Source of the DNA: Flaccisagitta enflata
Taxonomy: Eukaryota
NCBI GenBank assembly: GCA_965153355.1
Contig: OZ231126.1
Coordinates: forward strand, 16,926,001-16,990,000
DNA length: 64,000 nucleotides
Direction of reading: 5' to 3'
Both the position numbers and the translations under genes were made by a program. Each line of letters begins with the position of its first letter. Position 1 is the first letter of the stretch. The notes beneath the pieces were generated by a model that ran no database searches, was not told the origin of the DNA, and worked only from the letters and a program-made list of their open reading frames with translations. Shown in pieces: positions 4,037 to 61,728 of this stretch.

Positions 4037-5854
4037 GTAACAACTCGACAAACCCTCCTACTACACCAGAGATCTAAGAATACAGCATCCTTGAATTGGT
4101 CATGTAGCTGACTTGTTTCTGCTCTTCTTCATCGATGGTAACCCCATACATGTAGGACTCCCACTAGTTCCAACAAGTGACACGGGGTCACAATATTGTT
4201 GTGGACGGGTGGGGAGGGGCAGCCAACCCCCATCCACACCTCACCCAACACCCCTTTCAACACCAGCACATACACAAAAATCTTTTAAAATGATCATTTT
4301 CCCACTTTTCGACTCGTGCTTACGGGCGGACTGACAGATGGACAGATGGACGGACGGATGGACCAACAGACGGACAAAGCCTCTTATTGAGTTGCATGAC
4401 CGCAACTAATAAGAAAGATCTGTTTTACGTCGTCCAAAATTTTTGCTTGCCACATCGTCCATGGGATTTCTTAGAAATGCTAAGTCTAACTTTTTGATAT
4501 TTATTTGCCACTTCGTCAGTGATCTGGCAAGTATTTGATTATGAAAATACTTTGAAAATAAGACCAAGTAGGCCAATAAGGTGCAGCGTGTGGATCGTCG
4601 AATGAATGCGTTACCCCACAGACCAACCAACCAGCCGACCAATGGACACAGCCAGTTATAGAGGTGCTTTGTCGCACCTAAGAAGACGACTTGCCAGCAC
4701 GCATTCCTTACTCTTTCTCCTGCCCCTTCCTCCCTCTCCTGTCCCTCTTCCTCCTTTCCCTTTTCCTCCATTTTGTCTCGTAATGATCGTCCTGAATTTC
4801 GACGTGATCTACCTATGATTGAATTCATTCTTTATCTATTAGGCCGTGTTATTGTGTAATCCGCTTTTTGAGCAGTGGCCGATGTCCTGTTAGAACACAG
4901 GGGTAAACCATTACGTCTGTACGTACCCCCCTCCCCCCCCCTCCCGAGGCCTAAACCCTCAATCCAGCATATTGAGGCCTAGAATCTAGTCTTAGGAGTT
5001 TTTAATCAGTCCTCTCAGGCCTCAAACCAGCGCTCTCAGGGGGCGTTTTATAGTCAGATATAATCGCGTTTTGAACGGGCCATTCGGTCGCTCTCTACGT
5101 TCGTTCGCTCGCACCGCTCACTCCGCTTACTCACTCCGCAGCGCTCCGCTTTGCTACGCTCGCTTTGTTACGCTCGCTTCCCTAGCTCGGTTCACAGGCT
5201 TGCTCACTCACTTCGCTCACTCCTTCATGGGACAGTTGAAATTCATGAATATGTGATCATGCTGTTATCATGTTTTACGGAGAGAAACGCGTTTAAAATC
5301 ATCTTCGCTAGAAACACGCCCCAAGACCCATACTAAGCACCCCAGACCTGATATTAGCCCTCCCAAGCCTGGTATCAGCCCTCTTAGGTTTAACATCAGC
5401 CTCTCATGTCTTAATTAATCTCACCTCGCCTCATGACGGGGCAACAGGTCCTGCTGAGCGCTGACCATGTGCGATCCTTTGATGACTTGTCGTTTTTGAG
5501 CAGCGACCCAAAGGGCCCATGTCCTGTGGAACACAGGGGTGAGTTTCCAGACGTCCGTCCTTCCACCCCTGTCCCATGGCTATTGGGGCCTCAAATCAGC
5601 ACTATCAGGCCTAATTTTGGACATTTGAGTCCTCCAATAAACCCTCTAATTAACCCTTTTGTATAGCCCTCAAGACCCCAAATCATCCCTGCAGGAATCA
5701 AATCTGCCCCAGAGGCCTCAAGCCTGCCCACCAGGTTTCGTGCCTCAGACTCAACTCTACAGGCTGATAATCGCTAAGTTGAATCAATAGTTTGGATAGG
5801 CAAGGTCAATATAGATCTGCCTCACGCGCACACACATGCAAACGCACACACACA

Positions 5855-20559: not shown

Positions 20560-20765
20560 AGCTCCTGCCCAACCGTCCGTGACGAGATAGCCGTGTATCC
20601 AGCCTTGTTAGTGGCGGACACGCGACTCTACACCTTGCCGTGTCGATCGTAAGGTCGGTAGGTCGGTCGGTATGTCCGACACATTTTTGTATTCCTTGCG
20701 GTTTTTGCATTATTGCTCCTGCCCAACCGTCCGCGACTGGATTGCTGTGTATCCGGCCTTGTTTT
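20560..20765. mobile_element. HINE/DINE-1-like short dispersed repeat (representative copy)
   Basis: Shared ends (t)agtcgcggacacgcgactct (hairpin) and gtgtatccggccttgt, internal (GGTC/GTCC)n, set in T tracts. Other copies at ~4330-4405, 6900-6965, 12005-12125, 12840 and in viral introns at 32815-32962, 35390-35585, 35938-36085, 55085-55205, 60128-60256, 60950-60982. Confidence 0.6.
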
Positions 20766-21264
20766 TTTTCTCTATAAATCACACATGAGCAAGTGACAGG
20801 TTTGACTAGGAGTATGGAAATAAAAAGATTAAAAGAAAATATGATCGCCTGCATGAGCAATTGACAATTTTTCTCTCTCATTTGGGTGATTTTATCGAAT
20901 TTCGATATAAATTTTAGAAAAACAGCTTAACTTTTTTCCAAGGAAGTACCTACTAGCTAGTGGTCGTATAGACAGGAAGGGGCGTGGAAAAGGGGAAGGT
21001 GTTTTGGATGGAGATGTGGAGGATGCAGTCGGATTTTGGAAGGATTGAGGGGGGCGGGGGATAGTAGTTACATATATAGGGTTTAACTATGTTTTTTTTG
21101 GATGGGTTTCTGATCCTTGTAACAAGCTAGATTAGATAAAGGAAAGGCGCTAGTGATACATTATTTTTACATATATTTGTAACAAGCTATACTGCGCTTT
21201 GACACTAAGTTCATCTGTTTCTGTTTGGGTAGAGCTAGAAGAAAATTGTTTTAGTCTGACTTGA

Positions 21265-21537
21265 TCAGGAGTTGCATCTCCTATCATTGTTGTTTTTCTT
21301 GTTGTGATGATTGTAGTTGTTGTTGCAATTCTTCCATTCGATGAAGTCACACTCAGACCACTGATGGCAAAACCTTGCTTTTATTTCTTCTTTTATTTCT
21401 AATAAGGTGTAGTCCAAAAAATTGATGCGTTGACACACTTCCAAATTGGTTGAATGCAATTCTTTAGGAGCATCCTTATCCAAAAGTCGTAATATATAGG
21501 CTCCTTGACACAAAGCCATGGTTTCAATCACAGTCAC
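21265..21537 (-). CDS. Hypothetical protein (90 aa), left accessory cassette
   Basis: Non-repetitive ORF overlapping the end of the upstream ORF in a co-oriented cluster. Confidence 0.45.
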   Translation of the reverse strand: MTVIETMALCQGAYILRLLDKDAPKELHSTNLEVCQRINFLDYTLLEIKEEIKARFCHQWSECDFIEWKNCNNNYNHHNKKNNNDRRCNS

Positions 21538-21865
21538 ATGGGTTTTTCCTTTGTTTTCTTTCCTCTAATTTCTGTCGATTAAGAAGTTCCTTGTGATAAA
21601 GCTGACATAACTCCAGGGTCAGATTGGCGACACTCTCTATAACCGCATTGACTTCTTTTCTCACTTTGCCCAAATGCCGGTCACTACGATCACATTGAGC
21701 AGCCGTTTCCAAATCTCTTGTCGCTTCCTTATTGTATCGATTCGCTTCTGATTTTATTTGGTTTAAATGACCAAATATATCATGCGCATTTTCCAAAATG
21801 TAATTTGGGATGTGAATTTGTTCTCGCTTTAGTCGAGCAAATAGCCTCTCAGAATGATGAGCCAT
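21524..21865 (-). CDS. Hypothetical helical/coiled-coil protein (113 aa)
   Basis: ATG-initiated ORF with normal composition in a tightly packed cluster. Confidence 0.55.
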   Translation of the reverse strand: MAHHSERLFARLKREQIHIPNYILENAHDIFGHLNQIKSEANRYNKEATRDLETAAQCDRSDRHLGKVRKEVNAVIESVANLTLELCQLYHKELLNRQKLEERKQRKNPCDCD

Positions 21866-21962
21866 TTTTACAAATTCTCTCCTTCAAAAAGATCGAATCC
21901 TAACATACATATATATTTTTTTTATTGAAGTGATTAAAGTGCGTTACGAGATTGAGTATAGT

Positions 21963-22391
21963 TTAGAACATGTTACAATCAAATAGGAAAAAAACAGAAT
22001 GAACATTGCATTTACAATCTCTAGGATCAATTTCTTGATTTGCAAGATGTAGATATTTCGCCGCATTAGCTCTAAGGTTGTCCACTTCTGATTTCTTCAG
22101 CTTTAGAATGCTTCCAAAAGTAGAGTTAAGTCGTATTTCTCCTGGATTCATGTCAGGGCTGATGTGTACATCGTAGTAGTTTGTTTTATCATGACGATCT
22201 ATAAATCGGTAACCTGAGGTTGGATCGATGGCGCCAACCAGTTTCATGAATTCACAGAAGGCAGCAACAGTGTCGAATTCATGTTGCATGTCAAGTATTG
22301 TTCCAGCAACAATATTTAGTTTTATTTGTTTGTTTGGGTAGAATGTTAGAATTGCTGTGCCAGACAGCCGATGGAGAATTTTACATGGCAT
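21963..22391 (-). CDS. Hypothetical protein (142 aa)
   Basis: ATG-initiated ORF with globular composition, directly downstream of the SPSB-like gene. Confidence 0.6.
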   Translation of the reverse strand: MPCKILHRLSGTAILTFYPNKQIKLNIVAGTILDMQHEFDTVAAFCEFMKLVGAIDPTSGYRFIDRHDKTNYYDVHISPDMNPGEIRLNSTFGSILKLKKSEVDNLRANAAKYLHLANQEIDPRDCKCNVHSVFFLFDCNMF

Positions 22392-22438
22392 TTTCTGTAG
22401 AAGTCAGTGAATGAATTATGTCGAAGACAGTGAATGAA

Positions 22439-23278
22439 TTATGTCGAGACTCCGATAGTGGGAGAACACACATAAAGCGTTAAAATAAAAGGTAGAGATT
22501 TAAATGGATGCTTTTCTCCTACAGTGAATGAATTATATGGCTCTTGGACTTCAATTTGATTCCTGATAATTTTACGACAAGAAAACAATAGTGAAGGTGG
22601 GATTCCTCCAAGATATTGGCAAGTTACTTCTGCACGTCCAAAAACTACATTAACAATTGGGAAAAGTCGTTTTCCATGGATATTTTTAAAAGCAACGCCT
22701 AAATATTCATTATCAACAATAAAAGCTAGCGTGCCTAAGTTCATATCTAAAATCATTTTAAAGGTTTCGGGAATAGTGATGTGCTTAAATCTGTTTTCGT
22801 TTTTGATAGGGTACGATTCGGCGCTGTTGTTAATTAGATGAGAGTGATAAAGTTTATTTTTACTGATGTCCCAGCCCCAACTGTCTTCAGAGGATCCGAC
22901 AACGGAGGCGTATCCATAGCTGCGAATGCGAGCGTTTATTTCTGCGACCCCTACTATTGCATGTGTTCCACGTTTCTGTGTGGCCCATTTAAATTCCCAA
23001 GCGTGAATTCCATTAGTATATCCTTGCTTCGTGCGAATGCAGTCAGTGCTACTCGTAATCGGCTGTCGATAAACTGTGTTGAAATCGTTTTTTTTAATCG
23101 ACATAAAGGGTGATTTGTCATTAGGGTTCCATGAATGCGCTTTCTGTATGTTTTTGTTGACTGGCGGAAGATTGAGTAGGTCTTCAACACGGGGAGGAGT
23201 TGGAGGAATGTCATGAGGGTATTCACGCTTGAATTCTTGAATTGTCAAATTATGCATTTTGAAAAGCTGGCTATACAT
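22439..23278 (-). CDS. SPRY-domain SOCS-box protein (SPSB/gustavus-like), intronless
   Basis: HSWNPNDKS, RQPITSSTDCIR, GIHAWE, RGTHAIVGV, SWGWDI, LDMNLGTLAF, YLGVAF, LFPIVNVVFG; BC-box-like PPSLLFSCRKIIR. Confidence 0.9.
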   Translation of the reverse strand: MYSQLFKMHNLTIQEFKREYPHDIPPTPPRVEDLLNLPPVNKNIQKAHSWNPNDKSPFMSIKKNDFNTVYRQPITSSTDCIRTKQGYTNGIHAWEFKWATQKRGTHAIVGVAEINARIRSYGYASVVGSSEDSWGWDISKNKLYHSHLINNSAESYPIKNENRFKHITIPETFKMILDMNLGTLAFIVDNEYLGVAFKNIHGKRLFPIVNVVFGRAEVTCQYLGGIPPSLLFSCRKIIRNQIEVQEPYNSFTVGEKHPFKSLPFILTLYVCSPTIGVST

Positions 23279-23317
23279 TACATTCTTGAATTGATAACAA
23301 AAAAAACAATTTGTAAG

Positions 23318-23905
23318 TTACATATGTACTTGAATTCCATTTCGAAAAGGGCAGCGACAGACTGGACATTTAGGTCCTACAATTGGTTGTAAATGAAGAT
23401 AACATTCATAACAGACGCAAAGATGAGAGCAGCCTATTAAAAGCATATTTGCTACGCGAGTTAAACACACTTTACATCGTATTTTGATATATAGCGGCTC
23501 ACATTGATCACGCAATACGTCAAAGTTTCTAGAATCTAGCGCGTGACTAAGAGGTGTTAAATCTTCAGATTTTGGTTCTCGGGGATTTATATCTCGTTCG
23601 TTTCTAACAAATTCGCACAGAGGAGAGTATCTTTCATGCTGGTCAAGGGGGTCCTGAACATAACACCGTCTCAATTCTACTCCGCATTTAAAACATTTGA
23701 CTAAGCCAACGTCTGAATTAAGCATATAAAATCCTGCTTTTGCCAAAAGAGCGGGTGCTTGAAAGCGATATCTAGGCCAATTTTTGAAAGAATGGATGCG
23801 GTCTTGTAGACAACTGTAATCTGGGTCCCATAGTGAAAACAATGGGAAATGTCGAAAGGGAGATGAGATAAAAGAATCTTGGAAGGGGGAGGAGTGTTCA
23901 TCCAT
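23318..23905 (-). CDS. iap: Inhibitor of apoptosis (single BIR + C-terminal RING), intronless
   Basis: BIR: RIHSFKNWP...LAKAGFY...VKCFKC...DPLDQHERYSPLCEFV; RING: CKVC...GCSHLCVCYEC...CPVCR. Confidence 0.93.
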   Translation of the reverse strand: MDEHSSPFQDSFISSPFRHFPLFSLWDPDYSCLQDRIHSFKNWPRYRFQAPALLAKAGFYMLNSDVGLVKCFKCGVELRRCYVQDPLDQHERYSPLCEFVRNERDINPREPKSEDLTPLSHALDSRNFDVLRDQCEPLYIKIRCKVCLTRVANMLLIGCSHLCVCYECYLHLQPIVGPKCPVCRCPFRNGIQVHM

Positions 23906-25868
23906 GATTTATATAATTAAGAGATTAAGGAGTTAAATACCGTACAAGGTAAAAGAATAAAAAATACCGTTCAAGGTAAAAAAATCATATCCTTTTGGAT
24001 AAACATTTATTTTTTTTTTATTTTTTTTTTAATTTATCGTCGCTGTCTTCGTCGATGGAAGAGGAAGAAGAAGAGGAACAGGAAGAGTTAATGACGGGAA
24101 GTCTTGGACCACGCCGCCACCCCTCTAACGAAGGGAGTGGAGCCGCTTTCGCCTCCGCTTTCGCCTCCGCTTTCGCCTCCGCTTTCGCCGCTGTTGTTGT
24201 CGTCGCTGGAGAGAGGGTCTCCGGTTCTGGCGGGGCCGCAAATGACGGCCTCCTCCTCATTCGAAGTGGAGGAGCGTGTGGAGGCGTATTTACGTCTGTC
24301 TGGAATAAGAGGCGATAGAGGGAAAAAAGGGTGAAGAAAAAAATCAGAAATGCGGGATGATGCAATGTTGTTCCAAAGACGCAGAATAACTGAAAACTAG
24401 CTAAAAGTATATGTTGCTATGTCTATAAAATAAAATAAGCAAACATTCCCGTTATGTGAAAAACCAAACAATTATGTATACCTTGTTCTCATTTAGGCTT
24501 TGAAGTTCATATCTCGGTTGAAAGATATGAGATGTTAATAGGGTTTGTGTTGGGTGCATGCGCGTGCAATGGAGAGTGTTGTGGCTGCATATGTGGTGTG
24601 ATTATGGGTTATGTGTGTGAAAGTGCTTGTAGAATTAAACGGTAGTGTTGTTTGTTGAGCCGTCTACATCTCCTCTCCTCTCCTCTCCTCTCCCACGACC
24701 CATACTTCTCCGATACGTCATCCCCCTCATCAACTGATTCTTACTCCTCTGTAACATCTTTCTTTTCCTCTCTTGCAATTCCCTTTCTCTCCTACACTCT
24801 CTCATCTCCAATTCGATATCCCTCAGACGCCAAAATACTCTCTGCACCTCCGACCTCTCTGTTTCTCTTTCCTCTTCTTCCTCTCTTTCATCCACTTCAT
24901 CTTCATCTTCATCTTCATCTCTTTCATCCTCCAACGTCTGGCGCGCCCTCTCCCTCTCCTCCTCCTCCTCCTCGTTATCTGACGACCCAAATATGTGTGG
25001 TGCGTGCGTGTTTTGAGTTTGTTGGGAAGATAGCTGTTATGACAGTAAAAAAGTTGCTAGAGGTTATTTCTCCTTTGAAAGTGAAGTGGGTGGTGGTAAC
25101 TGTCACAATGTCTTTAGTGATTTAACAAGAAACTTACTGTGTTCATAGAGACCGGCGTGACGGGCATGGCTTGGCGACGCCCCTCCCTTCTCTTCTTGAA
25201 GAAGATGACGCCGACGATGACGCCTCCGACCACCAGAACCGTCGTGAGGGTTCCAAAGACACTCAATCTGTAGTAAAGAAAAAGTATTTTGACTATTAGT
25301 AATAGTAGTAACCTCAGTAGTTTTAGCGGGATGCAGTTTGTGTTTTAGAGGATGCAGTCTGCCTTGTAGTAACCTCAGTAGTTTTAATGGGTGTAGTTAT
25401 ATCAAATTTGACTTACAAAATAATTTCTTGATTTGGATCGACCGTCTGATCGAATTTTTCATCCGTTTGCTCGCCGTTATCCGTTTGTTCGCCGTCAGCC
25501 GTTTGTTTGCCGTCCGCAGTTGTTGAATGAATGTTTGCTGATTGTCTGTTGTCCGTAGTAGATTGTATGTTTGCTGATTGTTTGCCGTCTGTAGACTGAT
25601 TGACGACCGTGGATTGTTTGTCGTCTGTAGATTGTCTGATGGACGTAGTTTGAATGTTTACTGTTTGTCTGTTGTCTGTAGATTGATTGACGACCGTAGT
25701 TTGTATGTCTGCTGTTTGTCTGTCGTCTGTGGATTGATTGACGACTGTAGATTTTATGTCTGCTGTTTGTTTGCCGTCTGTGGATTGTCTGGCGATCGTA
25801 GAAGATATTTCCGTTTGTCTGCTGTCTGTTTGTTTGCTGTCTGTGGATTGGCCGACAATTGTTTGTAC

Positions 25869-30536: not shown

Positions 30537-32672
30537 TTAATCAACAAAAGCTTTTAAATGTAAAGGAAGTGAAAGACCTCCTGTAGGAGAGTAGAGAGAA
30601 CTAGAAAATAGACGTTTTGATGAAAAAGAACTTAAAATTCCTTTAGTAATAGAGTAACAATAAATATTTCCTCTAAGTTTTTTTAGACTATATTGAACAA
30701 TTTTTCTGGGGGTTTTTTTTTTGATAGTTGCGTTTATAAAATCTTTTTTTGTAACCCCTGATTGTAAACGGCGCGCTATACCCTTAATTTTTTTTGTGAT
30801 AGTAATATTTTTATACCCTCCTAAGTAGTACTGTTTAACACTACTCGAGTAATACGAGAAGACTCCCCCCTCTCTTCCAAAATTCAATTTCTTTTCTTCC
30901 TTGAAAAGCCATCTTCTAGACTTCAAAAATTTACTTAAAAATACATGAGTTGCTTCTAATTTTTTATTATTTTTTATGATTGTTTTATAAAGATCAGAAT
31001 CAGTACTAATACAGCTCCAATCTAAAATTCCAGAAAAAGCTTGAAAGTAAGAGGTTGCTAAATGTTTTACAAGATGTGAATCATAAGGGAATTCTTCTTT
31101 ATTCTCTGCATTGTACTGCTTGATTTGACCGTGTTCCAAAGAAGAAAGAGGTCGTTGAATTGATAGGCAAAGGCTATCCTGAAGAAAAGATAATGAATTA
31201 ATTTTTTTCAATTTTAATGAATTAATTAATTAATAAATTAATCAATTAATTAATTAATTACTCACAGTGTCTGAAAATAGCAGACGACAATTATATCCTC
31301 TCAAAGCCAAACGAGAACAGATTGTGAAGTAGGCTCTGTATAGATATAATTTACTGAAAAAAAAAATTTTAATTAATAAAATATCTAATTATGACGGTTC
31401 ACAAATTGAGCGTTTGCCACTGGTGATTATGATTTGGATACGACGGTTTACAAGTTGTGTTATCTGCCACTGGTAATCGAGATCGAGGTGAGAGCGAGAA
31501 AAGTGGGGGAGGGTTAAATGTGGGAAAATCCCGGACTTAACAAACCCGGCAAGAGAGAGAAAGTTTGAAAACAAAAGACGGGAATTAGGAGAGATCGAGA
31601 GAGATCGCGTATTTAACAAATTCGGTCAGAGAGAAAAAACAAAAGACGGGCCTTGATTTAGATTCCAGGGTATATATATATATGATATATACATGAAAGC
31701 ATACACCTCACACCTTCATACTGCATACCTCATAGCGTAAACACGTGATGAGATGCTGAATTGGTTTTTAGATTCCAAGGTTTGCCGGTCAAAGATAAGT
31801 ATATTTGCATTTTCATTGATATGCAAAAAGGAGAAAAATGATTCTTTTTTGGTGTGTCTAAGAAACATTTTTTTGGAAAGAGTCAAACGCGTGCACAGGA
31901 AACTGCTTTCATTCATATGCATTCTACCTGTAAGAATGATGAAAGGGTGTTGTTTTAAGCAATTGTTCAAGCAGTGATCGTTTCAATAGGGCTCAACACA
32001 TTTTTACAAATTTTTGTCGCTCGGTCGGTAGGTCGTCGGTCGGTCGGTTGGTTAGTCGGTCGGTCGGTCGGTCGGTCGGTTGGTCGGTCGGTCGGTCGGT
32101 TACGCACCCGGAAGACAATTTGAAAGTGACTTGATAATTTTAAGGAGTAGAGGAGATGGATTGAAATTTTTTTGGTTTTGCAGTTTTGTGATCCATTTGT
32201 TGAATATTCTAGCCGAATCACATTTTACAATTTTAAAAATATTGGTGATTGTTAGATCATGAATACAGGTTTGGTATAAAATACATTCAGCCCAAGTAGA
32301 GACTGTGTTTTTTTTCTTTAAAAAACTCATTAATCTACTAGAATTTTCTCGACAGGGGTTTAGATTCGCAGCTTTTGCCCATTGAACTTGTTCTTTCGTC
32401 ATTTCTTGGGCGGTTGCATTGTGCTTGAAAGGTAGAGCTGAAAAATCCATATTTAAAAAAGATGTCTTTGCTTGTTCACGATAAGATAATTCAACTTCAC
32501 AAAAATAAATTATGTTATTTTCAAAAGCTTCATGATAGAAGAAATCAAGGTCTCCCTGGGTCAGAGCTTGAGCTACCATCTCAAATTCTGTTGGTCTTCT
32601 TGTAGATGTACACAGAGTGTAAGATACGCTCATTAAACCTGATAAACAGGACGGATATAAGCTGCGAGAGAG

Positions 32673-32722
<50 letters not shown>

Positions 32723-33509
32723 TGCTTTAGCTTCTAGTAGCAGTACTAGTCGTGAGCGTGCGTCTTTACACCTTGTTGTGTCGGTCTGTCGATCCATCCG
32801 CTCGAAATATTTTTAGTTGCGGACACGCAACTCTATAAGAGTCTTTGTCGGTCGGTCCGTTGGTCGGGCTGTCGGGGAGTGCGAGTCAAAAAGTGTGAAA
32901 ACACGCATTTCCGCCCCTAGCTACCCGTCCGCAACTGGTAGGGCCGTGTATCCAGCCTTGTTACAAGCAAACTAACCTGTTGGCATCTGCATAGATAATT
33001 TGGCGTTGCTCCATGTTTTTAAGGCTGTCTTTCACATCAAGGCCCGTAAAAAATGCATAATTTGAAGAGCTTACGCTATAACCTCCAAGCAGGGATTTAG
33101 CATAGATTTGACTTATCTCAGAATTTAAAAGATGTAATTTTATTGGTTTGTTGGCGTTCTTTGGATCTCGCCCGTTTAATAGATAGCTATTGAGCGAAAA
33201 GCTCGCTGCTGAGATGTAGTAAGAAGGCCAAAGATTGCATATTTTATAAAGATATCCATAGTAGAAAATTAATACATCCATTAGCACAGCGCTGTCCAGA
33301 GCCGAATAAATATAAAAAAGTAAATGATAGTTTGGTATTTTAAAAAATTCCCATAATTTCAAAAAAAAATTATATTCATTTGGGGTCGCTCCCGCGCCTT
33401 TCAATTTTGAATGGAAATGGTCTAGTGGAGGGGGTGTTGTTCTTTGTAAGTATGCAAAGGAGTCCACAAATTCAAAAGGCTGAGAAAAAAGAGAGAATGT
33501 GGGTTGTTT

Positions 33510-33594
<85 letters not shown>

Positions 33595-34138
33595 TGTTTA
33601 TGAGAGAGAGAAAGAGCAAGTCTACCTGGATACATTTGCCTTGCATGATTAATTCAAAGTGGGCTTCAGTGTATTTTAGTTTGCTACAAATTAAATCATG
33701 ACTTCTTGGAAAGATATCCTTGAGAGGCTTTCCACTGTTGAGTTTGGCTTGTTGCATGTCCTTTATAAGCCCGTCCAGACTGTCAAATTATGTGAATACA
33801 AGAGATACAAGAATACAAGAGATTACATTGCAGATTGCAGATTGCAGATTACATTGCAGATTGTTGCAGGGGTTTTTACTTCGTTTGTTTAGAGACTGTC
33901 TTACCTTGCGCTAAGCATAAGATAAGAATCCAAGAACTTATATTGTCGGCTGTAAGGACACCGCGGTATAGGAAGGTTCTTTTTTTTCAATTGTTGTTTT
34001 TCAGCAAAAGAAAGAGAATGATAGCAGCAGGTTGCTAACGAAACGCAACTAAATTTGAGGGTGACGGACGTAATCGTGTTTTTGTCGCTTTTGAAGAGAA
34101 CTTTTGGTCGCTCTGTTTAAATAGAGAGAGAGATAGAG

Positions 34139-34189
<51 letters not shown>

Positions 34190-34553
34190 CAGAACAAAGG
34201 TGAAAGAACGACACCTACCGTAAAGAAGTGGAAGGGTGATTATTTCGCCGTTTTTTCCAATTTGATTAAATTTTTTCATTCCCACTCTTGTTATTATGTC
34301 CAGGATAATTTGCGAATCGTATAAGGCAAAATTGTGCAGTAAAATTGGGATCGTGCTGTTATCTTGGGTCAAATTGACGTTGCATACCTGTGTGGAAGTT
34401 GTACCGTTGAGGTTGAGGTTCAATTGATGAAGAACAGAGATCTGTTCGAAAATTTTCGGTTATTAAATTTTCATGTTGATTCCACCATGTCTAATTCATC
34501 AATTGTTGCATACCTGGCATATATTCATCAAAGACCCGTCGGCGAAATGGGCT

Positions 34554-34596
<43 letters not shown>

Positions 34597-35616
34597 TGAG
34601 CGAGTGAGGAGCGAGTGAGCGAGTGAGGAGCGAGCGAGCGAGTGAGGAGCGAGCGAACGAGTGAGTGAGTGAGAGATGTTGTTACCTAGGCCCTTTATGA
34701 CGTCTAAGTGATTGTGGTGGCGGGCGTGGGCATATTTGTGTGTCGGCCCACGGAAAAAAGCCCCACACGTAAAACAATTTGTAGCTGTTGCGAAGGCGAT
34801 CCTATCTTGTATGTTGACATCTTTCTTAAGATTAGGAATTCCAGGATCTCTAGGTTTAACCTTTTTTTCTATAAATTCGTTTATATGATATAATTTACTT
34901 CTCAAGCCGGTCAAAAAGTGCAGATAGAAATCTTCTAATGAATCGCTGGAATCGTTGAGAATTTTACATTCAACCTCACTAAGGTGTGCTGGGAGTTGGG
35001 CTTGCCATAAGCTATAGGGAGAACTGAGAATCAAACTATATGCCATAGGAATCTGTTTGTATTTTGCCGATTTTGGAGGTTTTGCAGTTGCTAAGTCGAT
35101 ACTCTCATGGTCTAGAGGGACGTTACGACATTCAAAGTCCATTGATATCATGAAGATTGGGGGGAAAAGGGACGATAGTCTAGACCTGTCAAATTTTAGA
35201 TATTTCTTCTTAAAAGTTTTGCTTTTTTTACAAAAGTATTTATTATTGTAGAGTATTGTGTTTTTCACAAAGCGTCTGCCAATGGCATTGGGAGTTCCAC
35301 ACTCTGTAGCTATCGCATGTTGAATCGTGATTCTCGAAAATAGGTTCTTTCCAGTGGGTAAATATTTTGCTGGAATGAATGAAAACAAACAAGGCCGGAT
35401 ACACGGCTACCCCAGTCACGCGTCTCGGAGTGGGCAGGAGCTATATTTAGAGTCTCATCATGGTGAGCAGGAACAGTGAGGCCAAAGACCCCCAAAAAAA
35501 GTAGAATATGACAGCCGGACGGACAGCGGACCTTGGATGGGCGGGCAGGCCGCCAGCGGGTTGTAGAGATTGCGTGGCAAACTAAAAAAAGCGGATTACA
35601 ATCTCTCTCTCTCCTC

Positions 35617-35680
<64 letters not shown>

Positions 35681-37152
35681 CTCTCTCTCTCACCTTCTGC
35701 ATATTTGACAATTTCCATACAGGTGAGTGTTGTGATTTTTATCTTTGAATGATTGAATAAGACGAAATAAGTTGATAATAAGTAGAGTATGCTGATATTG
35801 ATGAAGCGGTTTATTGAGCTTTTTTTTTTTATTCTTTAATGGGGCTCTGATGTCCTCTGAATCTCGTAATAGGTCTATGTTGTAATGCATACGAGGATAA
35901 AATTTTATTTTTGATATTATTATTATAATTTGTATTTTTAGTCGCGGACACGCGATTCTACATCTTGCCGTGTCGGTCGGTAGGTCGGTCCGTCGGTCCG
36001 TCCGGCCGTCACATTGAATTCTGAGCAGTTTTCGCATTGCTGCTCCTGCCCGACCGTCTGCGACTGGCCTGTCGTGTATCCGGAGCAGTAAAAAGGGTTC
36101 CCAGGAATAACTATTTGAAATAATAACTATAAAAATAACTATTTGAAAAAAAAGTTTGAAATCAAATTTTATCGTAGTTTGCACTGTGACCTATGGGGAA
36201 AAAATCTTTTTTATTCCATTTAGAACTAAGTTTGATAGGAAGAAGTGAGAAGCTACGAAGGGAGTCGTTATATTGACAGGAATAGATATTTAAAGCTATT
36301 CCTTTGTACTTTTTAAGGAAAGTATAATGCTTCTGGAAAATTTTGAAGGGTAAATCTTCGATGATATGGAATTGGTCAAGGCTCACGCCTTGATGAAGAA
36401 TGTCAATGTGTCCTAGGTCGATGCTTTGAAGTATTTTTTTGATATGTTTATTACGATTTAGGAGGAATTTCCCTCCATGCGCGACGTGTTCAAATTTAAG
36501 TATGATATTGACTAACACGCAAGTGTTAGTGAAACCGATAGGCGTTCTTGTTCCAGGGTCAATGACGTTTCGTCGAAAAACACTTCTGAGATTTTCATGG
36601 AATTTTCGTTTTTTTTCCTTAGATGTGCTTCCCAAGCCGATAACCCCATGTAGAGGTCTCCGTATATGTACAATATTTCCACTTAAAATCTTTGAGAAAG
36701 TCCAGCCTTAAACATGAAAAAAAAATTTTTACTACTACAGTCAATTCCTGCTTTAGTAGATCTATTAAAGCAAGTTTTTTCATTGTTGATTGATCATTTA
36801 TACCTGATTCCACTCTAAGTTCAATTGTTTCACAGTCTATCATTAAGGATCTTGAAAAGCCGTTTAGCAGTTCGTCAACGATAAGAAGGAGATTTTCTTG
36901 ATTTAAATTAGTAGGGGTAATCCAGTATTCATTTCTATAGCTTGAGATTATTGACATTTTGTTTTCTCTTTCTAAGATTTTTTCAAACTGAACCTCGAAG
37001 CTTAAAAATACTATATATTGATATCCCAATTCAAATAAACTCATAAGATATCTCTTCATGTATATGAAAAAAATGTAGGCCTCTTGCTCGGTCAAAAACG
37101 ATATATCGTCATTTTCTGAAACCCGTTCAAAGACTCGTTTTTGTGACGTTCC

Positions 37153-37187
<35 letters not shown>

Positions 37188-37415
37188 GAAATATTGCAAT
37201 TCTTTTCAGTCGAGGACGCACGAAGGATCTATTACTGTATCCCACCCAACCGACGGTGACTGTCCTGCTGCATATCCGGCCTTGCTCACTTTGAATGAAT
37301 ACATATCATGCATACCTCCGTAAAACGAGTCCATCGTGTATTCCTCTATTCCGAGACTGTTTTCATCCAGCCCTTCAAATAGGTCTCCAAAGACGTCAAT
37401 ATTTTCGTCCATCAT
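30537..37415 (-). CDS. polB: Protein-primed family B DNA polymerase (Maverick/Polinton type), 14 exons, ~1450 aa
   Basis: Exons: 37415-37316, 37151-36804, 36706-36191, 35874-35694, ~35332-34686 (acceptor uncertain), 34551-34514, 34387-34219, 34112-33905, 33779-33626, 33479-32977, 32661-32108, 31927-31729, 31353-31266, 31178-30537. Spliced motifs: ESG|WTF, ExoI MDFEC, CFTC..HARHHNH..CQ|VCN Zn insert, ExoII HNFALYDSQ, FLDSY..SA|SL, GKCIQ|PFEFVDS, ExoIII YSALDSAVL, PolA YADAN|SLYP, PolB KSLSNCLP|G, PolC FSDT|DSL. Confidence 0.93.
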
Positions 37416-37699: not shown

Positions 37700-37965
37700 T
37701 CAAACACGTGGAAACACATGGAGCATCATCATAATCATTATCATCATCCTCAGAAATTGGATTTTTTGGAGGGTTATCATCATCATCATTGTCATCATCA
37801 TTATTGTCATCATCATCATTGTCATCATCATCATTGTCATCATCATCATTGTCATCATCATCATTATCATCATCACCATCATCATCATCATCATCACCAT
37901 CATCATCATCACCATCATCATCATCACTGTTGTCATTATCATCATCATAATCATCATTTCATCAA

Positions 37966-38000
<35 letters not shown>

Positions 38001-38013
38001 ACATCATTATCAC

Positions 38014-38055
<42 letters not shown>

Positions 38056-38976
38056 TGTCATCATCATCATCATCATCATCACCATCATCACCATCATCGC
38101 CATCATCATCATCATCATCATTGTTATCATTGTTGTTATCATCATCATCATCAGCATTGTTATCATCACTGTTGCTATTGTCATTGCTACTGTTATTATC
38201 ATTTTCTTCGTTGTGATCATTTTCTTCATTATCGTTGCTTCCTCCACTGCCGGTGTTGTCGTTCTCGCTGTCAGGTTCTTTGTTTTCCGGATTGTCATTG
38301 CACTCATTGACTTCCATGACCCTCCTCTTTTTTGGATTTGTTAAGTGGTTGGGCTTTTTTTTTATTTCGTGTTTCTTCCTTTCTATTTTTTCATTCTTCT
38401 TTACTTTTTTCATTCTGTTAGTTTTCTCCAGATGGGTGGGAGATTTTTTTGTTATCTGCTTTCCTGTCTTTTTTTTCTCGCTCTTTTGCTTGTTTTGTAT
38501 TGTGACAGAATCTTGTTGTTTTAATCTCCTTTTACCATATTTAGTTGGCCAAACTATATTTTTAGCGATATTGTTGATTAAACCGTTAAAGCTAGTTTTG
38601 TTCTGGTTAGGATTTAGGCTCTCAATAGATTTTGAATCGCTCGGCTTTACTGAAAGGGCTTCTACATTTGAGTGGCTCTTATCATCTGTATTCATTGTTT
38701 TGTTTACGTATTTTCTACATGCGGCTATTAGTTGTTCGCGTTCTTTCTCCTGTCTTTTTTCTTTTAAATAACTAGTCTCGTAGATATTTTTCATTAGAGG
38801 AGTCCCGAAGTACGCACTTCCACTCGTTTGTTTAGCAAGACAAAAATTCTCACTCCAGCCACCCCTAGTAATTCTTAGGAGACTCCTTTAACTAACTCGA
38901 TCCAATATTCTTTCACTTGTCATATCTACGATTTGTTGAAAAAGATGAACACAAAACTACAAGTTTCCATAGAGAA

Positions 38977-53113: not shown

Positions 53114-57469
<4,356 letters not shown>

Positions 57470-58182: not shown

Positions 58183-58423
58183 ACCGTCATACAGGAGCAT
58201 CAAGGCACGTGCTGCTTGACTTTACACCTCACTGCTCCTGTCCAAATACGACCTCAAATAGGGGTCTTACCTACCTGTACGCGATTGGGGAGGTAGCCGT
58301 GTATCCGGCCTTGTTTTTTTTTTTGTTTTTTTTTCTTTCTCTTTTCTTATGCTTATTCCTTTTATTTGATCCTACTAGGGCTCTAATTCGCCATGCTTTT
58401 TTCAATCTATTCCTTGATTAACT

Positions 58424-59693: not shown

Positions 59694-60596
59694 ATGGAAG
59701 AAATCACCACAAGAAAAAACTCTCTTAAAGACCCAGTAAAACATTTGATTAAAAAATATTATACAAGTGATGACATACACCTCAACCCCAACACTTCTAA
59801 TATATTAAGCGAAATAAAAAAAGATAGGAATCTTGAAGGTTTAACCGCTGAAGACATAATCTCCTTCAAAAACAGCTTATATCACATTTCGGTAAGCGAG
59901 AAAAAGTAAAGTTATCAGTTTCGGACTTTTGCACAGAATACTGATTGTATCTACCTTTCCCCCTTCTTTTCTCCCCAGAGATCGCAAGAATATAAGATTT
60001 TAAAAGGAAAAAATCGGTATACAACGAGACAATATGTCAGTTTCGGTCCAGGTGAAATGAAAAAATGAGCTTAAAAAATGATTTTTTGATTTTTTTTGAA
60101 TTTTTTTCTGATTTTCTTTCCTATTTTTAGTCGCGGACACGCGACTCTACACCTTAAAAAATGATTTTTTGATTTTTTTGAATTTTTTGAGCTTAAAAAA
60201 TGATTTTTTTGATTTTTTTGAATTTTTTTTCTGGATTGCCGTGTATCCGGCCTTGTTTTCTCTCTTCCCCCAAGGTCAAATTTTAGCAATGGATTTGTCG
60301 TACATCCGGAAAGTGCGTCGTCAGAAACGCACAGCGATTAGCGCTCAAACGAAACCGACCATAATATTGGTTCTTTTGGATATATTTAGTCGCTTCTGCC
60401 AGTTGAGGATCTTACCTGACCAACGAGCGATAACAGTTCAGCAGGCTATAAGAGAAGCTCTTTCTTTTTTCCTGCCAGTAACAAGGAAATCCAACAATTA
60501 TTCACACTTTCTGACAGACCGAGGTATGTTTTCCCCCCTCCCCCCACTTCCCTCCATATATCTATCTATCTGTCTCGCTCACCTATCTATCTCTCT

Positions 60597-60674
<78 letters not shown>

Positions 60675-61728
60675 TTTCTCTCTTTCTCTCTCTCTTTTCA
60701 TCCTCTTTTGTTTTTTATGGTCAGGTAGCGAATTCAAAAGTGACCTGTGCAAGAACACCGGAATTCCAAATCTATTTCATGTCAGAACGTCAAATATCAA
60801 CAAAATTTCATTAGTTGAAAGACATATAAGGCTAGTAACAAACCCGTCCGTCCGTCTGTCACCGCACTTTGTTAATGGGAAAGGTTTCGGCCTTACTGCT
60901 CCAGCCTAAACGCTCCACTGGTCTTTACGGTTCCCTACCCCTCACCCGCACGCGACTGAGGTAGCCGTGTATCCAGCCTTGTTTTTTTTTCACTTCAGGA
61001 AATGCAAAAAAGTTTTTTTTCGAATTTTGATACGACATCCAAGTTTGCAATACGACAAAGTTGTCCATCTAACAGAGGTCGTCCTTAATTCTACCCCCAG
61101 CCGAGCCATCGCTTATTACACACCTCATAGAGTTCAATTTGACAACTATATCTCATCCAAAGTGCTTAGACAACAATTGCAGTTATACAGAAAAAATCAG
61201 GAAGAAGCTAAAAATGTCTTTGAAAGATTAGACAATGATAAAACTTTTAAAATATATGATAAGGTCCGCTTAAAACTAACAAAGCAAATTATTAGAAAAG
61301 AAAGCGGGCTTTTTAATCCCTTAGTGTCTAAAGAAGTCTTTGAGATTTCAGCTGTCAATTCTGATAGATATCCATGGTCTTACCGTTTGAAAGAACTACC
61401 TGGACATAGACTCTTTTATGCTTGGAATCTAGTAAAAGTCGATGAAAGAATACTAAAAGAAGCGGACAAACAAAAGCATTTGGTCTTACAGAATGATGAA
61501 ACTACATCAATTGATGTAATAGACATTAAAAAAAGGGAATCAAACATGTTACGAAATAAAAAAATATTACCCTCTAAGTCTGAAATCATGTTTGAAATCT
61601 TACACAAAGGAGAAAGACAGTTCGTAACAAAAGAGACATTACTTTTATTCAAAAAAATGTTTGATGATGATGTGCTTAAATATTCGATGAAATTTGATTT
61701 ACCTGAATTTCAACAATACCGTGTGTAA
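59694..61728 (+). CDS. int: Retroviral-like (rve) integrase of Maverick type, 5 exons, 451 aa
   Basis: Exons 59694-59891, 59979-60051, 60275-60523, 60725-60830, 60999-61728. Catalytic D (ILAMDL), LDIFSRF, D (FLTDR|GSEF), E (LVERHI|RK), NSTPSRAIAYYTP; C-terminal SH3-like FKIYDKVRL...EVFEI..YRLKE..FY..NLVKV. Confidence 0.92.

Follow-up and report, generated by a model that had tools for sequence, protein, structure and literature searches.

The 64,000-nucleotide stretch of the Flaccisagitta enflata genome analysed here (contig OZ231126.1 of assembly GCA_965153355.1, positions 16,926,001 to 16,990,000; hereafter the window) carries on its minus strand, at 37415-30537, the hallmark motifs of a DNA polymerase scattered over different stop-to-stop frames. 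Reading of the strand, checked by script, resolves this region into one gene of a family B polymerase of the protein-primed type (pPolB), in which 14 exons are separated by 13 introns of 87-418 nucleotides (nt), 2589 nt in sum. The number of exons and the type of polymerase, both proposed in an earlier note on this DNA, are supported.

Relatives were searched for with exon 10 as the query among 1.84 billion representative proteins, which yielded 234 matches; most of the relatives found are exon-sized open reading frames (ORFs) on unannotated marine contigs. As reference relatives we used four long uninterrupted ORFs, also located on marine contigs: P0007 (1123 residues), P0008 (1131), P0009 (1118) and P0011 (663). 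The exon translations were aligned to the relatives with an X placed at every junction. The exons are the following:

37415-37316, minus strand: exon 1, 100 nt, predicted ATG at 37415-37413, open frame ending in phase 1, GT donor at 37315-37314
37151-36804, minus strand: exon 2, 348 nt, ending in ..ELRVES plus a split G, with tblastn matches of P0007 and P0008
36706-36191, minus strand: exon 3, 516 nt, with tblastn matches
35874-35694, minus strand: exon 4, 181 nt, ending in ..CQICR plus AG (phase 2), GT donor at 35693-35692
35369-35276, minus strand: disputed start of exon 5, following an acceptor AG at 35371-35370; homologous, one base off the frame of exon 4
35275-34686, minus strand: exon 5 in its in-frame version, 590 nt, following an acceptor AG at 35277-35276; Exo I (MDFE) and the first half of a Cys/His motif (HHNH)
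34551-34514, minus strand: exon 6, a micro-exon of 38 nt, HFADGSLMNICQ, placed gap-free between exons 5 and 7 against the relatives
34387-34219, minus strand: exon 7, 169 nt; Exo II (HNFALYD)
34112-33905, minus strand: exon 8, 208 nt, junctions 7 and 8 gap-free
33779-33626, minus strand: exon 9, 154 nt, with tblastn matches and alignment to relatives
33479-32977, minus strand: exon 10, 503 nt; Exo III and the first half of motif A (..YADAN plus AG)
32661-32108, minus strand: exon 11, 554 nt, from (S)LYPS.. to ..SNCLP plus a split G (motif B)
31927-31729, minus strand: exon 12, 199 nt, with a tblastn match of P0009
31353-31266, minus strand: exon 13, 88 nt, ending in ..LLFSDT (first half of motif C)
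31178-30537, minus strand: exon 14, 642 nt including the stop, starting with DSLCLSI; KQY motif and C-terminus

With exon 5 taken from 35275, the exons sum to 4290 nt, i.e., 1429 codons and a stop, and contain no internal stops. Exon 1, which ends at junction 1, is covered by no homologue in the alignment to relatives and is therefore a prediction only.

The exonuclease motifs MDFE (exon 5), HNFALYD (exon 7) and YIYSALD (exon 10) are all present, and we take them to be Exo I (DxE), Exo II (Nx2-3F/YD) and Exo III (Yx3D), respectively. The polymerase motifs DAN/SLYP, KSLSNCLP/G and FSDT/DS (in each, the slash marks a junction), as well as VKQYY, are rebuilt only across or beside a junction. Motif A (DAN/SLYP) is cut by junction 10, where the split codon AGC encodes S; motif B (NCLP/G) by junction 11 (split codon GGT, G); motif C (SDT/DS) by junction 13, in phase 0; and the sequence ESG/W by junction 2 (split codon GGC, G). 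All four interruptions, together with the 38-nt micro-exon, had been pointed out in the earlier note and are indeed there. Since the introns lie inside catalytic motifs, the enzyme should depend on exact splicing by the host, and a working protein would be obtained only from a nuclear transcript processed precisely by the host spliceosome. The need for precise splicing, claimed previously, is thus supported by the fact that motifs A, B and C are put together in no other way. Introns 5 and 6 cut one more motif, the Cys/His motif CxxC..HHNH..CxxCN of exons 5-7 (34514-34760 and 34350-34387), which in two distant relatives (P0117 and P0137) is identified by Pfam as Endonuclease_7.

Splice signals and comparison with relatives

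Each of the 13 introns starts with GT and ends with AG. G is the last exonic base at 12 of the 13 donors, and A occupies the position before it at 10; position -3 of the acceptor is a pyrimidine in 12 of 13, and pyrimidines account for 57-100% of the final 30 nt at the 3' ends of the introns. Judging by these ends, the extended consensus, the pyrimidine tract and the restoration of the frame, the introns can be regarded as spliceosomal-like, of the U2 type. In a control, a frame-keeping GT..AG pair was available within 6 nt on either side for 0.1245 of 50,000 random position pairs, and twelve such pairs in succession would arise by chance with a probability of about 1e-11.

These figures should be considered together with the possibility that the gene is a dead pseudogene, a decaying copy interrupted by random insertions of microsatellites and other short repeats. 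Seven (CT/GA)n runs of at least 16 nt do occur within the gene, all of them in introns and six being CT on the sense strand, and pieces of an abundant repeat also lie inside the interruptions. Moreover, in vertebrate Maverick fossils insertions have been labelled 'introns' by software (PMC8097293). However, in our case the repeats are found within the interruptions and not at their ends, and random insertion would hardly provide GT..AG ends in 13 of 13 cases along with the restoration of both frame and collinearity upon removal. In the window at large simple repeats are plentiful, and 4% of its sequence consists of perfect (CT/GA)n runs alone.

The collinearity is evident from the tblastn matches of P0007, P0008, P0009 and P0011 on the window, which follow one another in order and abut in query coordinates. 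The spliced alignment to uninterrupted relatives, which had been suggested as a check of the gene model, proved collinear at 11 junctions (2, 3 and 5-13); near junction 5, the relatives' own lengths differ just downstream. The residues encoded by split codons are conserved: G (GGC) at junction 2 and D (GAC) at junction 3 in three of three relatives each, S (AGT) at the exon 8 junctions (7/8), again in three of three, and one more split G in four of four. Such restoration of conserved G, D, S and G also argues against a dead pseudogene. In P0011 the sequence FSDTDS is uninterrupted, and the 87-nt motif C intron of the window appears in the alignment as a gap of 29 codons. Because P0007, P0008, P0009 and P0011 are uninterrupted at most or all of the sites, the data support the gain of introns within this polymerase family, probably stepwise, as some relatives have none in comparable regions.

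Further indications come from the places where the ORFs of more fragmentary relatives end or begin; 188 proteins were compared in this respect with the X-joined translation. At motif B, the ORFs of seven clusters (P0005, P0006, P0007, P0008, P0010, P0036 and P0048) end 1-11 residues past the glycine, while P0009 and P0011 are uninterrupted through it. The residue following this glycine in the relatives is K, M, E or A, which is consistent with a donor of the GT-purine form, provided that the glycine is encoded by GGT as in the window. At junction 10, P0002 (68% identical) and P0026 (36%) terminate with DxN, R and a stop, P0002 reading DANR before its stop. The P0009 cluster meets a stop six residues past the end of exon 12 (junction 12), after ..VYSLR. 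A search with exon 14 gave eight proteins, five of which begin at an internal Met and are uninformative on the intron site. In P0182 (78% identity), P0183 (75%) and P0187 (48%), the homology begins precisely at the first residue of exon 14; the residues before it are unrelated and the last of them is Q, as a CAG acceptor would allow, and in all three the exon is open through to the identical C-terminal point. Motif C is read through only by the distant P0011 among the relatives compared.

We suppose that these shared ORF ends correspond to introns. In that case the introns of motifs A, B and C, being shared with diverged lineages, should be old; together with the one after ..RVYxx, they would form a set common to diverged relatives, the remainder being lineage-specific. 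The comparison of intron positions in related elements, recommended in the earlier note, therefore had a positive outcome for the motif A, B and C sites, with the reservation that the sites are deduced from ORF ends. It is also difficult to reconcile with a dead pseudogene that the positions recur in relatives of 48-78% identity whose exons are intact.

Some other ORF ends fall elsewhere. Eleven distant relatives (P0019, P0020, P0024, P0027, P0032, P0042, P0043, P0044, P0046, P0051 and P0087) end at L-x-G or L-x-G-G-Y-S, aligned to window residues ~900-903 (..LLGGYS.., exon 10), where the window has no intron, and P0015, P0017 and P0029 end with LYP, R and a stop, four codons past junction 10; other lineages may thus have introns at different places. 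The ORF starts at 'MPFE' near junction 9 (P0018, P0035 and P0037) were considered as one more sign of a shared intron and dropped, since this Met is part of the protein according to P0013. Word-based protein searches with exons 5 and 7 gave no matches, nor did tblastn with the exon 5 ORF against phage records, and sequence searches of PDB gave no useful match.

Intron 6 and repeats within the introns

Two features inside the introns deserve separate description:

34513-34388, minus strand: intron 6, 126 nt
32810-32962, no strand assigned: abundant short repeat, similar to a short interspersed element (SINE) or a miniature inverted-repeat transposable element (MITE), nested in intron 10, with loose ends at 32810 and 32962; further pieces in introns 3 and 4

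A perfect 12-nt direct repeat (34505-34516 and 34379-34390) flanks intron 6 in register; AG/GT is part of it, so that the donor is provided by the upstream copy and the acceptor by the downstream copy. The interior of the intron harbors a perfect 11-nt inverted repeat (34421-34431 and 34495-34505). In a contig of the RNA library X13, position 34505 is joined straight to 34378, so that exactly 126 nt are missing, and there are three other differences from the window; the contig represents either a gene copy in which the insertion never took place or partly spliced RNA. Intron 6 thus looks like the youngest of the introns, with its mode of origin still visible: it would be an insertion whose 12-nt target duplication, containing AG/GT, supplied both splice sites.

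Could all the introns have originated from a single intron-generating transposon family that invaded the element? Such introners are described in Maverick-like proviruses of dinoflagellates (PMC11957031), and the target-like duplication, the inverted repeat and the absence of intron 6 from one contig would be in line with this origin, as would the depth of the DNA run X1 in the intron 6 bin, 5220 vs about 450. Yet the 13 introns are mutually unrelated in sequence, save for the abundant repeat, pieces of which are nested in introns 3, 4 and 10; a flanking duplication longer than 5 nt is present at only one of the 13, the repeats at the other 12 being at most 5 nt; and several of the introns are apparently old and common to diverged lineages. 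One introner family as the source of all the introns was rejected for want of any sequence common to the 13 beyond those nested pieces, and we find an introner origin of this gene structure highly improbable. The resemblance to the dinoflagellate proviruses consists in an integrated virus-like element with intron-like insertions and in the target duplication of intron 6. The difference is that their inserts can be recognised as members of repeated introner families and are for the most part of recent origin (PMC11957031 and PMC12166617), whereas here the 13 introns are unrelated and several are conserved.

The X1 depth in the bin of the abundant repeat at 32810-32962 is about 2e6 vs about 450 for the gene. 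The repeat is about 150 nt long; over its copies the X1 depth amounts to 1e5-2e6, and it is high in RNA libraries too. Further copies or pieces are located at 35387-35420, 35933-36128, near 4373, 6928 and 12832, at 20588-20770 and 55084-55207, near 58292, and at 60122-60258 and 60954-60989. Scans of the window for Rfam families and tRNAs gave no match and left the repeat unclassified.

Reading frame, transcripts and identity of the element

We consider it quite probable that the gene belongs to a multi-copy virus-like element whose polymerase acquired its 13 spliceosomal-type introns stepwise, some of them being ancient within the family. More specifically, it would be a protein-primed family B polymerase, of the type found in Mavericks/Polintons, adenoviruses and linear plasmids, encoded by an element of the nucleus; its transcript would be spliced, and the element is presumably mobile. 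A number of observations weigh against this, and they are gathered in the present section along with the alternatives on which they bear.

The first of them concerns junction 4. The transition from 35694 to about 35332 had been called ambiguous in the earlier note, with a warning that it might hide a frameshift, and a one-base problem was indeed found: the donor after 35694 and the acceptor AG at 35371-35370 leave the frame one base off, and exon 5 read in this way contains 21 stops. By tblastn, the relatives match from 35325 and 35313 onwards, in the frame that exon 5 has downstream. The alternative acceptor AG at 35277-35276 keeps the frame, but about 30 residues conserved in the relatives are then lost. 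Junction 4 is thus either broken or deletes about 30 conserved residues. Accordingly, either this gene copy is slightly damaged, or the assembly contains an error at this point, or the downstream acceptor is in use, which would remove the discrepancy of frame.

The RNA evidence is also unfavorable. From the run X18 of polyadenylated RNA, 12.2 million reads were examined, about 6% of the whole, and coverage could be demonstrated for none of the exons. Six reads mapped, each only in part within the stretch; almost the entire depth comes from two bins in which the abundant repeat dominates (35734-36227), with a trace (0.12) where exon 7 and part of intron 6 share a bin. Among the RNA-library contigs, one from X10 (33619-34114) retains intron 8 whole, another (34198-34420) includes exon 7 together with parts of introns 6 and 7, and the X13 contig devoid of intron 6 still retains 21 nt of intron 7. 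Evidence of splicing was absent both from the part of the polyadenylated run that was read and from two metatranscriptome runs, and the polymerase copy appears transcriptionally silent in the data examined. The earlier note had named unspliced transcripts as evidence against its gene model. The contigs with introns 7 and 8 retained agree with that; however, the intron-retaining contigs are of low depth, come from two marine RNA libraries and may represent DNA carry-over or unspliced RNA.

The lack of visible expression, the retained interruptions and the junction out of frame are all what a dead pseudogene would exhibit. Against it, besides the splice sites, split codons and recurring positions discussed above, stands the excess of synonymous differences between copies. 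Of 15 exonic differences between the window and contigs of other copies, 11 are synonymous, with an expected fraction of 0.32 (P = 0.0013). Taken as a whole, these data make a dead pseudogene with random insertions very unlikely. The differences are clustered (six within 36623-36645 and five within 37066-37099, mostly synonymous), and the 97-nt intron 2 contains no copy difference at all; the clustering suggests patchy exchange with a diverged copy over steady divergence. Because 11 of the 15 differences are synonymous and the last exon is intact in relatives of 48-78% identity that share the motif C intron, coding constraint on the polymerase is indicated, as far as can be judged from sequence comparison. 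The earlier suggestion of purifying selection or recent activity after intron gain can be retained as regards the constraint and the gain within the family, and only in part as regards recency, the motif A, B and C introns being old.

In contigs of X1, exons and introns are equally covered, with a depth of about 300-540 and mostly no differences from the window. The depth falls to about 5 in the two neighbouring bins at 34746-35239, which include most of exon 5 with Exo I; a dip alone is no finding, and either most copies lack this part or differ in it, or the contigs were filtered out. If the depth of about 5 is the single-copy level, the intron-bearing form would therefore be the one present in many copies.

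The identity of the element is the next point to be considered. The polymerase most probably belongs with Pfam DNA_pol_B_2 (PF03175), judging from distant relatives recovered with exon 10: P0104 and P0140 score above the cut-off (48.1 and 52.9 bits). The window exons themselves do not reach the cut-off, the best E value being 0.051 for the ORF containing exon 7, and even the close relative P0008 stays below it (24.6 vs 25.8 bits). The shared intron sites are deduced at the protein level from ORF ends and starts; four scans of metagenome and viral contigs gave no confirmed locus for the relatives' DNA. The remaining features of the window that are relevant here are as follows:

59694-61725, plus strand: probable integrase gene, split by GT..AG intron-like stretches, with an rve match at 60277-60522
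37700-38887, minus strand: open frame of 395 residues immediately upstream of the polymerase, with acidic D/N-rich and Met-rich low-complexity runs and no family match
21265-23908, minus strand: IAP-like gene of host or viral origin, with a BIR domain and a RING finger (23318-23908) and a SPRY domain (22439-23317) in adjacent frames

The integrase candidate lies about 23 kb from the polymerase and scores 21.2 bits with Pfam rve (cut-off 32.6; E 3.5e-4). A (CT)n run of 66 nt, CT being on the sense strand, is found in one of its intron-like stretches, and the junction AAG/GCTAGT of this gene is either a GC donor or a lesion. Pfam revealed no capsid gene, ATPase or protease among the 18 long ORFs tried, a test of low sensitivity that misses split genes; the Walker A pattern G....GK[ST] is absent from every frame of the window; and self-BLAST of the window found no inverted repeat pair bracketing the polymerase, although the element may extend beyond the end of the window. 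For a neighbouring ORF of 610 residues, the ESM Atlas gave no usable match. The distinguishing marks of Mavericks/Polintons, i.e., terminal inverted repeats, a 6-bp target duplication and a size of 15-20 kb, were not found in the window. Membership of the Mavericks, implied in the earlier note, is therefore not established, as the window offers only the split integrase 23 kb away, below threshold, and neither capsid gene, ATPase nor terminal inverted repeats. The element may be called Maverick/Polinton-like, its membership of the group being unproven.

This leaves room for another explanation, namely that the polymerase of a Maverick-like virus was captured and domesticated and now represents an intron-bearing family of cellular genes that is no longer mobile. 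The host-like gene structure, the intron positions conserved across diverged lineages and the coding constraint would all be expected of such a gene, and so would the failure to recognise terminal inverted repeats, capsid genes or a packaging ATPase in the 64-kb window. On the other hand, the depth of about 300-540 vs about 5 in the two neighbouring bins would mean tens of near-identical copies if the dip is real; the probable integrase bears interruptions of the same type; other copies (P0001 and P0003) are broken at different places; and the absence of polyadenylated RNA for the locus, in the portion of the run read, would be odd for a host gene in use. We therefore regard domestication as unlikely, and prefer the explanation by a multi-copy virus-like element.

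Significance of an interrupted polymerase gene

The polymerase resembles that of Mavericks/Polintons in having Exo I-III, motifs A (DxxSLYP), B (Kx3NxxxG) and C (xDTDS) and KxY, an N-terminus with a long extension, and, between Exo I and Exo II, a Cys/His motif; the element is similar to them in its multiple copies and in the retroviral-type integrase candidate nearby. What distinguishes it is the 13 introns, since the core genes of Mavericks/Polintons are described as intronless. The ORFs of intact vertebrate Mavericks are without introns (PMC8097293), and nematode Maverick core genes are termed intronless in a preprint (bioRxiv 10.1101/2022.07.12.499685). For endogenous viruses of protists, gene calling presumes no introns, and large surveys use prokaryotic gene callers (PMC10120064). 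The unusual point of the present gene is thus that a core gene normally uninterrupted in such elements is here split into 14 pieces.

Our literature search, run on full texts without supplements, revealed no core pPolB reported to have many conserved introns of the spliceosomal type. Exon-intron structures have been predicted for some invertebrate Polintons. Among viruses, adenoviruses and polyomaviruses possess spliced genes and depend on host nuclear transcription and splicing, as is proposed here for the element of the window, and the adenovirus DNA polymerase is a protein-primed family B enzyme translated from a spliced message. Splicing in adenoviruses and polyomaviruses, however, mainly joins leaders and selects ORFs, and does not deal with a polymerase coding sequence cut into 14 parts through its catalytic motifs.

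Going beyond the single gene, we put forward, as a serious though still tentative proposal, that a marine Maverick/Polinton-like clade has long lived with spliceosomal introns in its core replication gene. The motif B intron would be shared across lineages only 30-40% identical, the number of introns would have grown stepwise to 13, the intron-bearing form would be the one that multiplies and depends on the spliceosome, and intron 6 would have been caught just after its birth. An intron-rich lineage of this kind would be fragmented or missed by surveys that assume intronless core genes, and it is consistent with such fragmentation that most of the relatives appear as exon-sized ORFs on unannotated contigs. 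If the proposal is true, a virus-like element can adopt the gene structure of its host while keeping the coding constraint on its polymerase, and the related sequences with 0 to 13 introns would make a series for studying intron gain at known positions, including one insertion scar.

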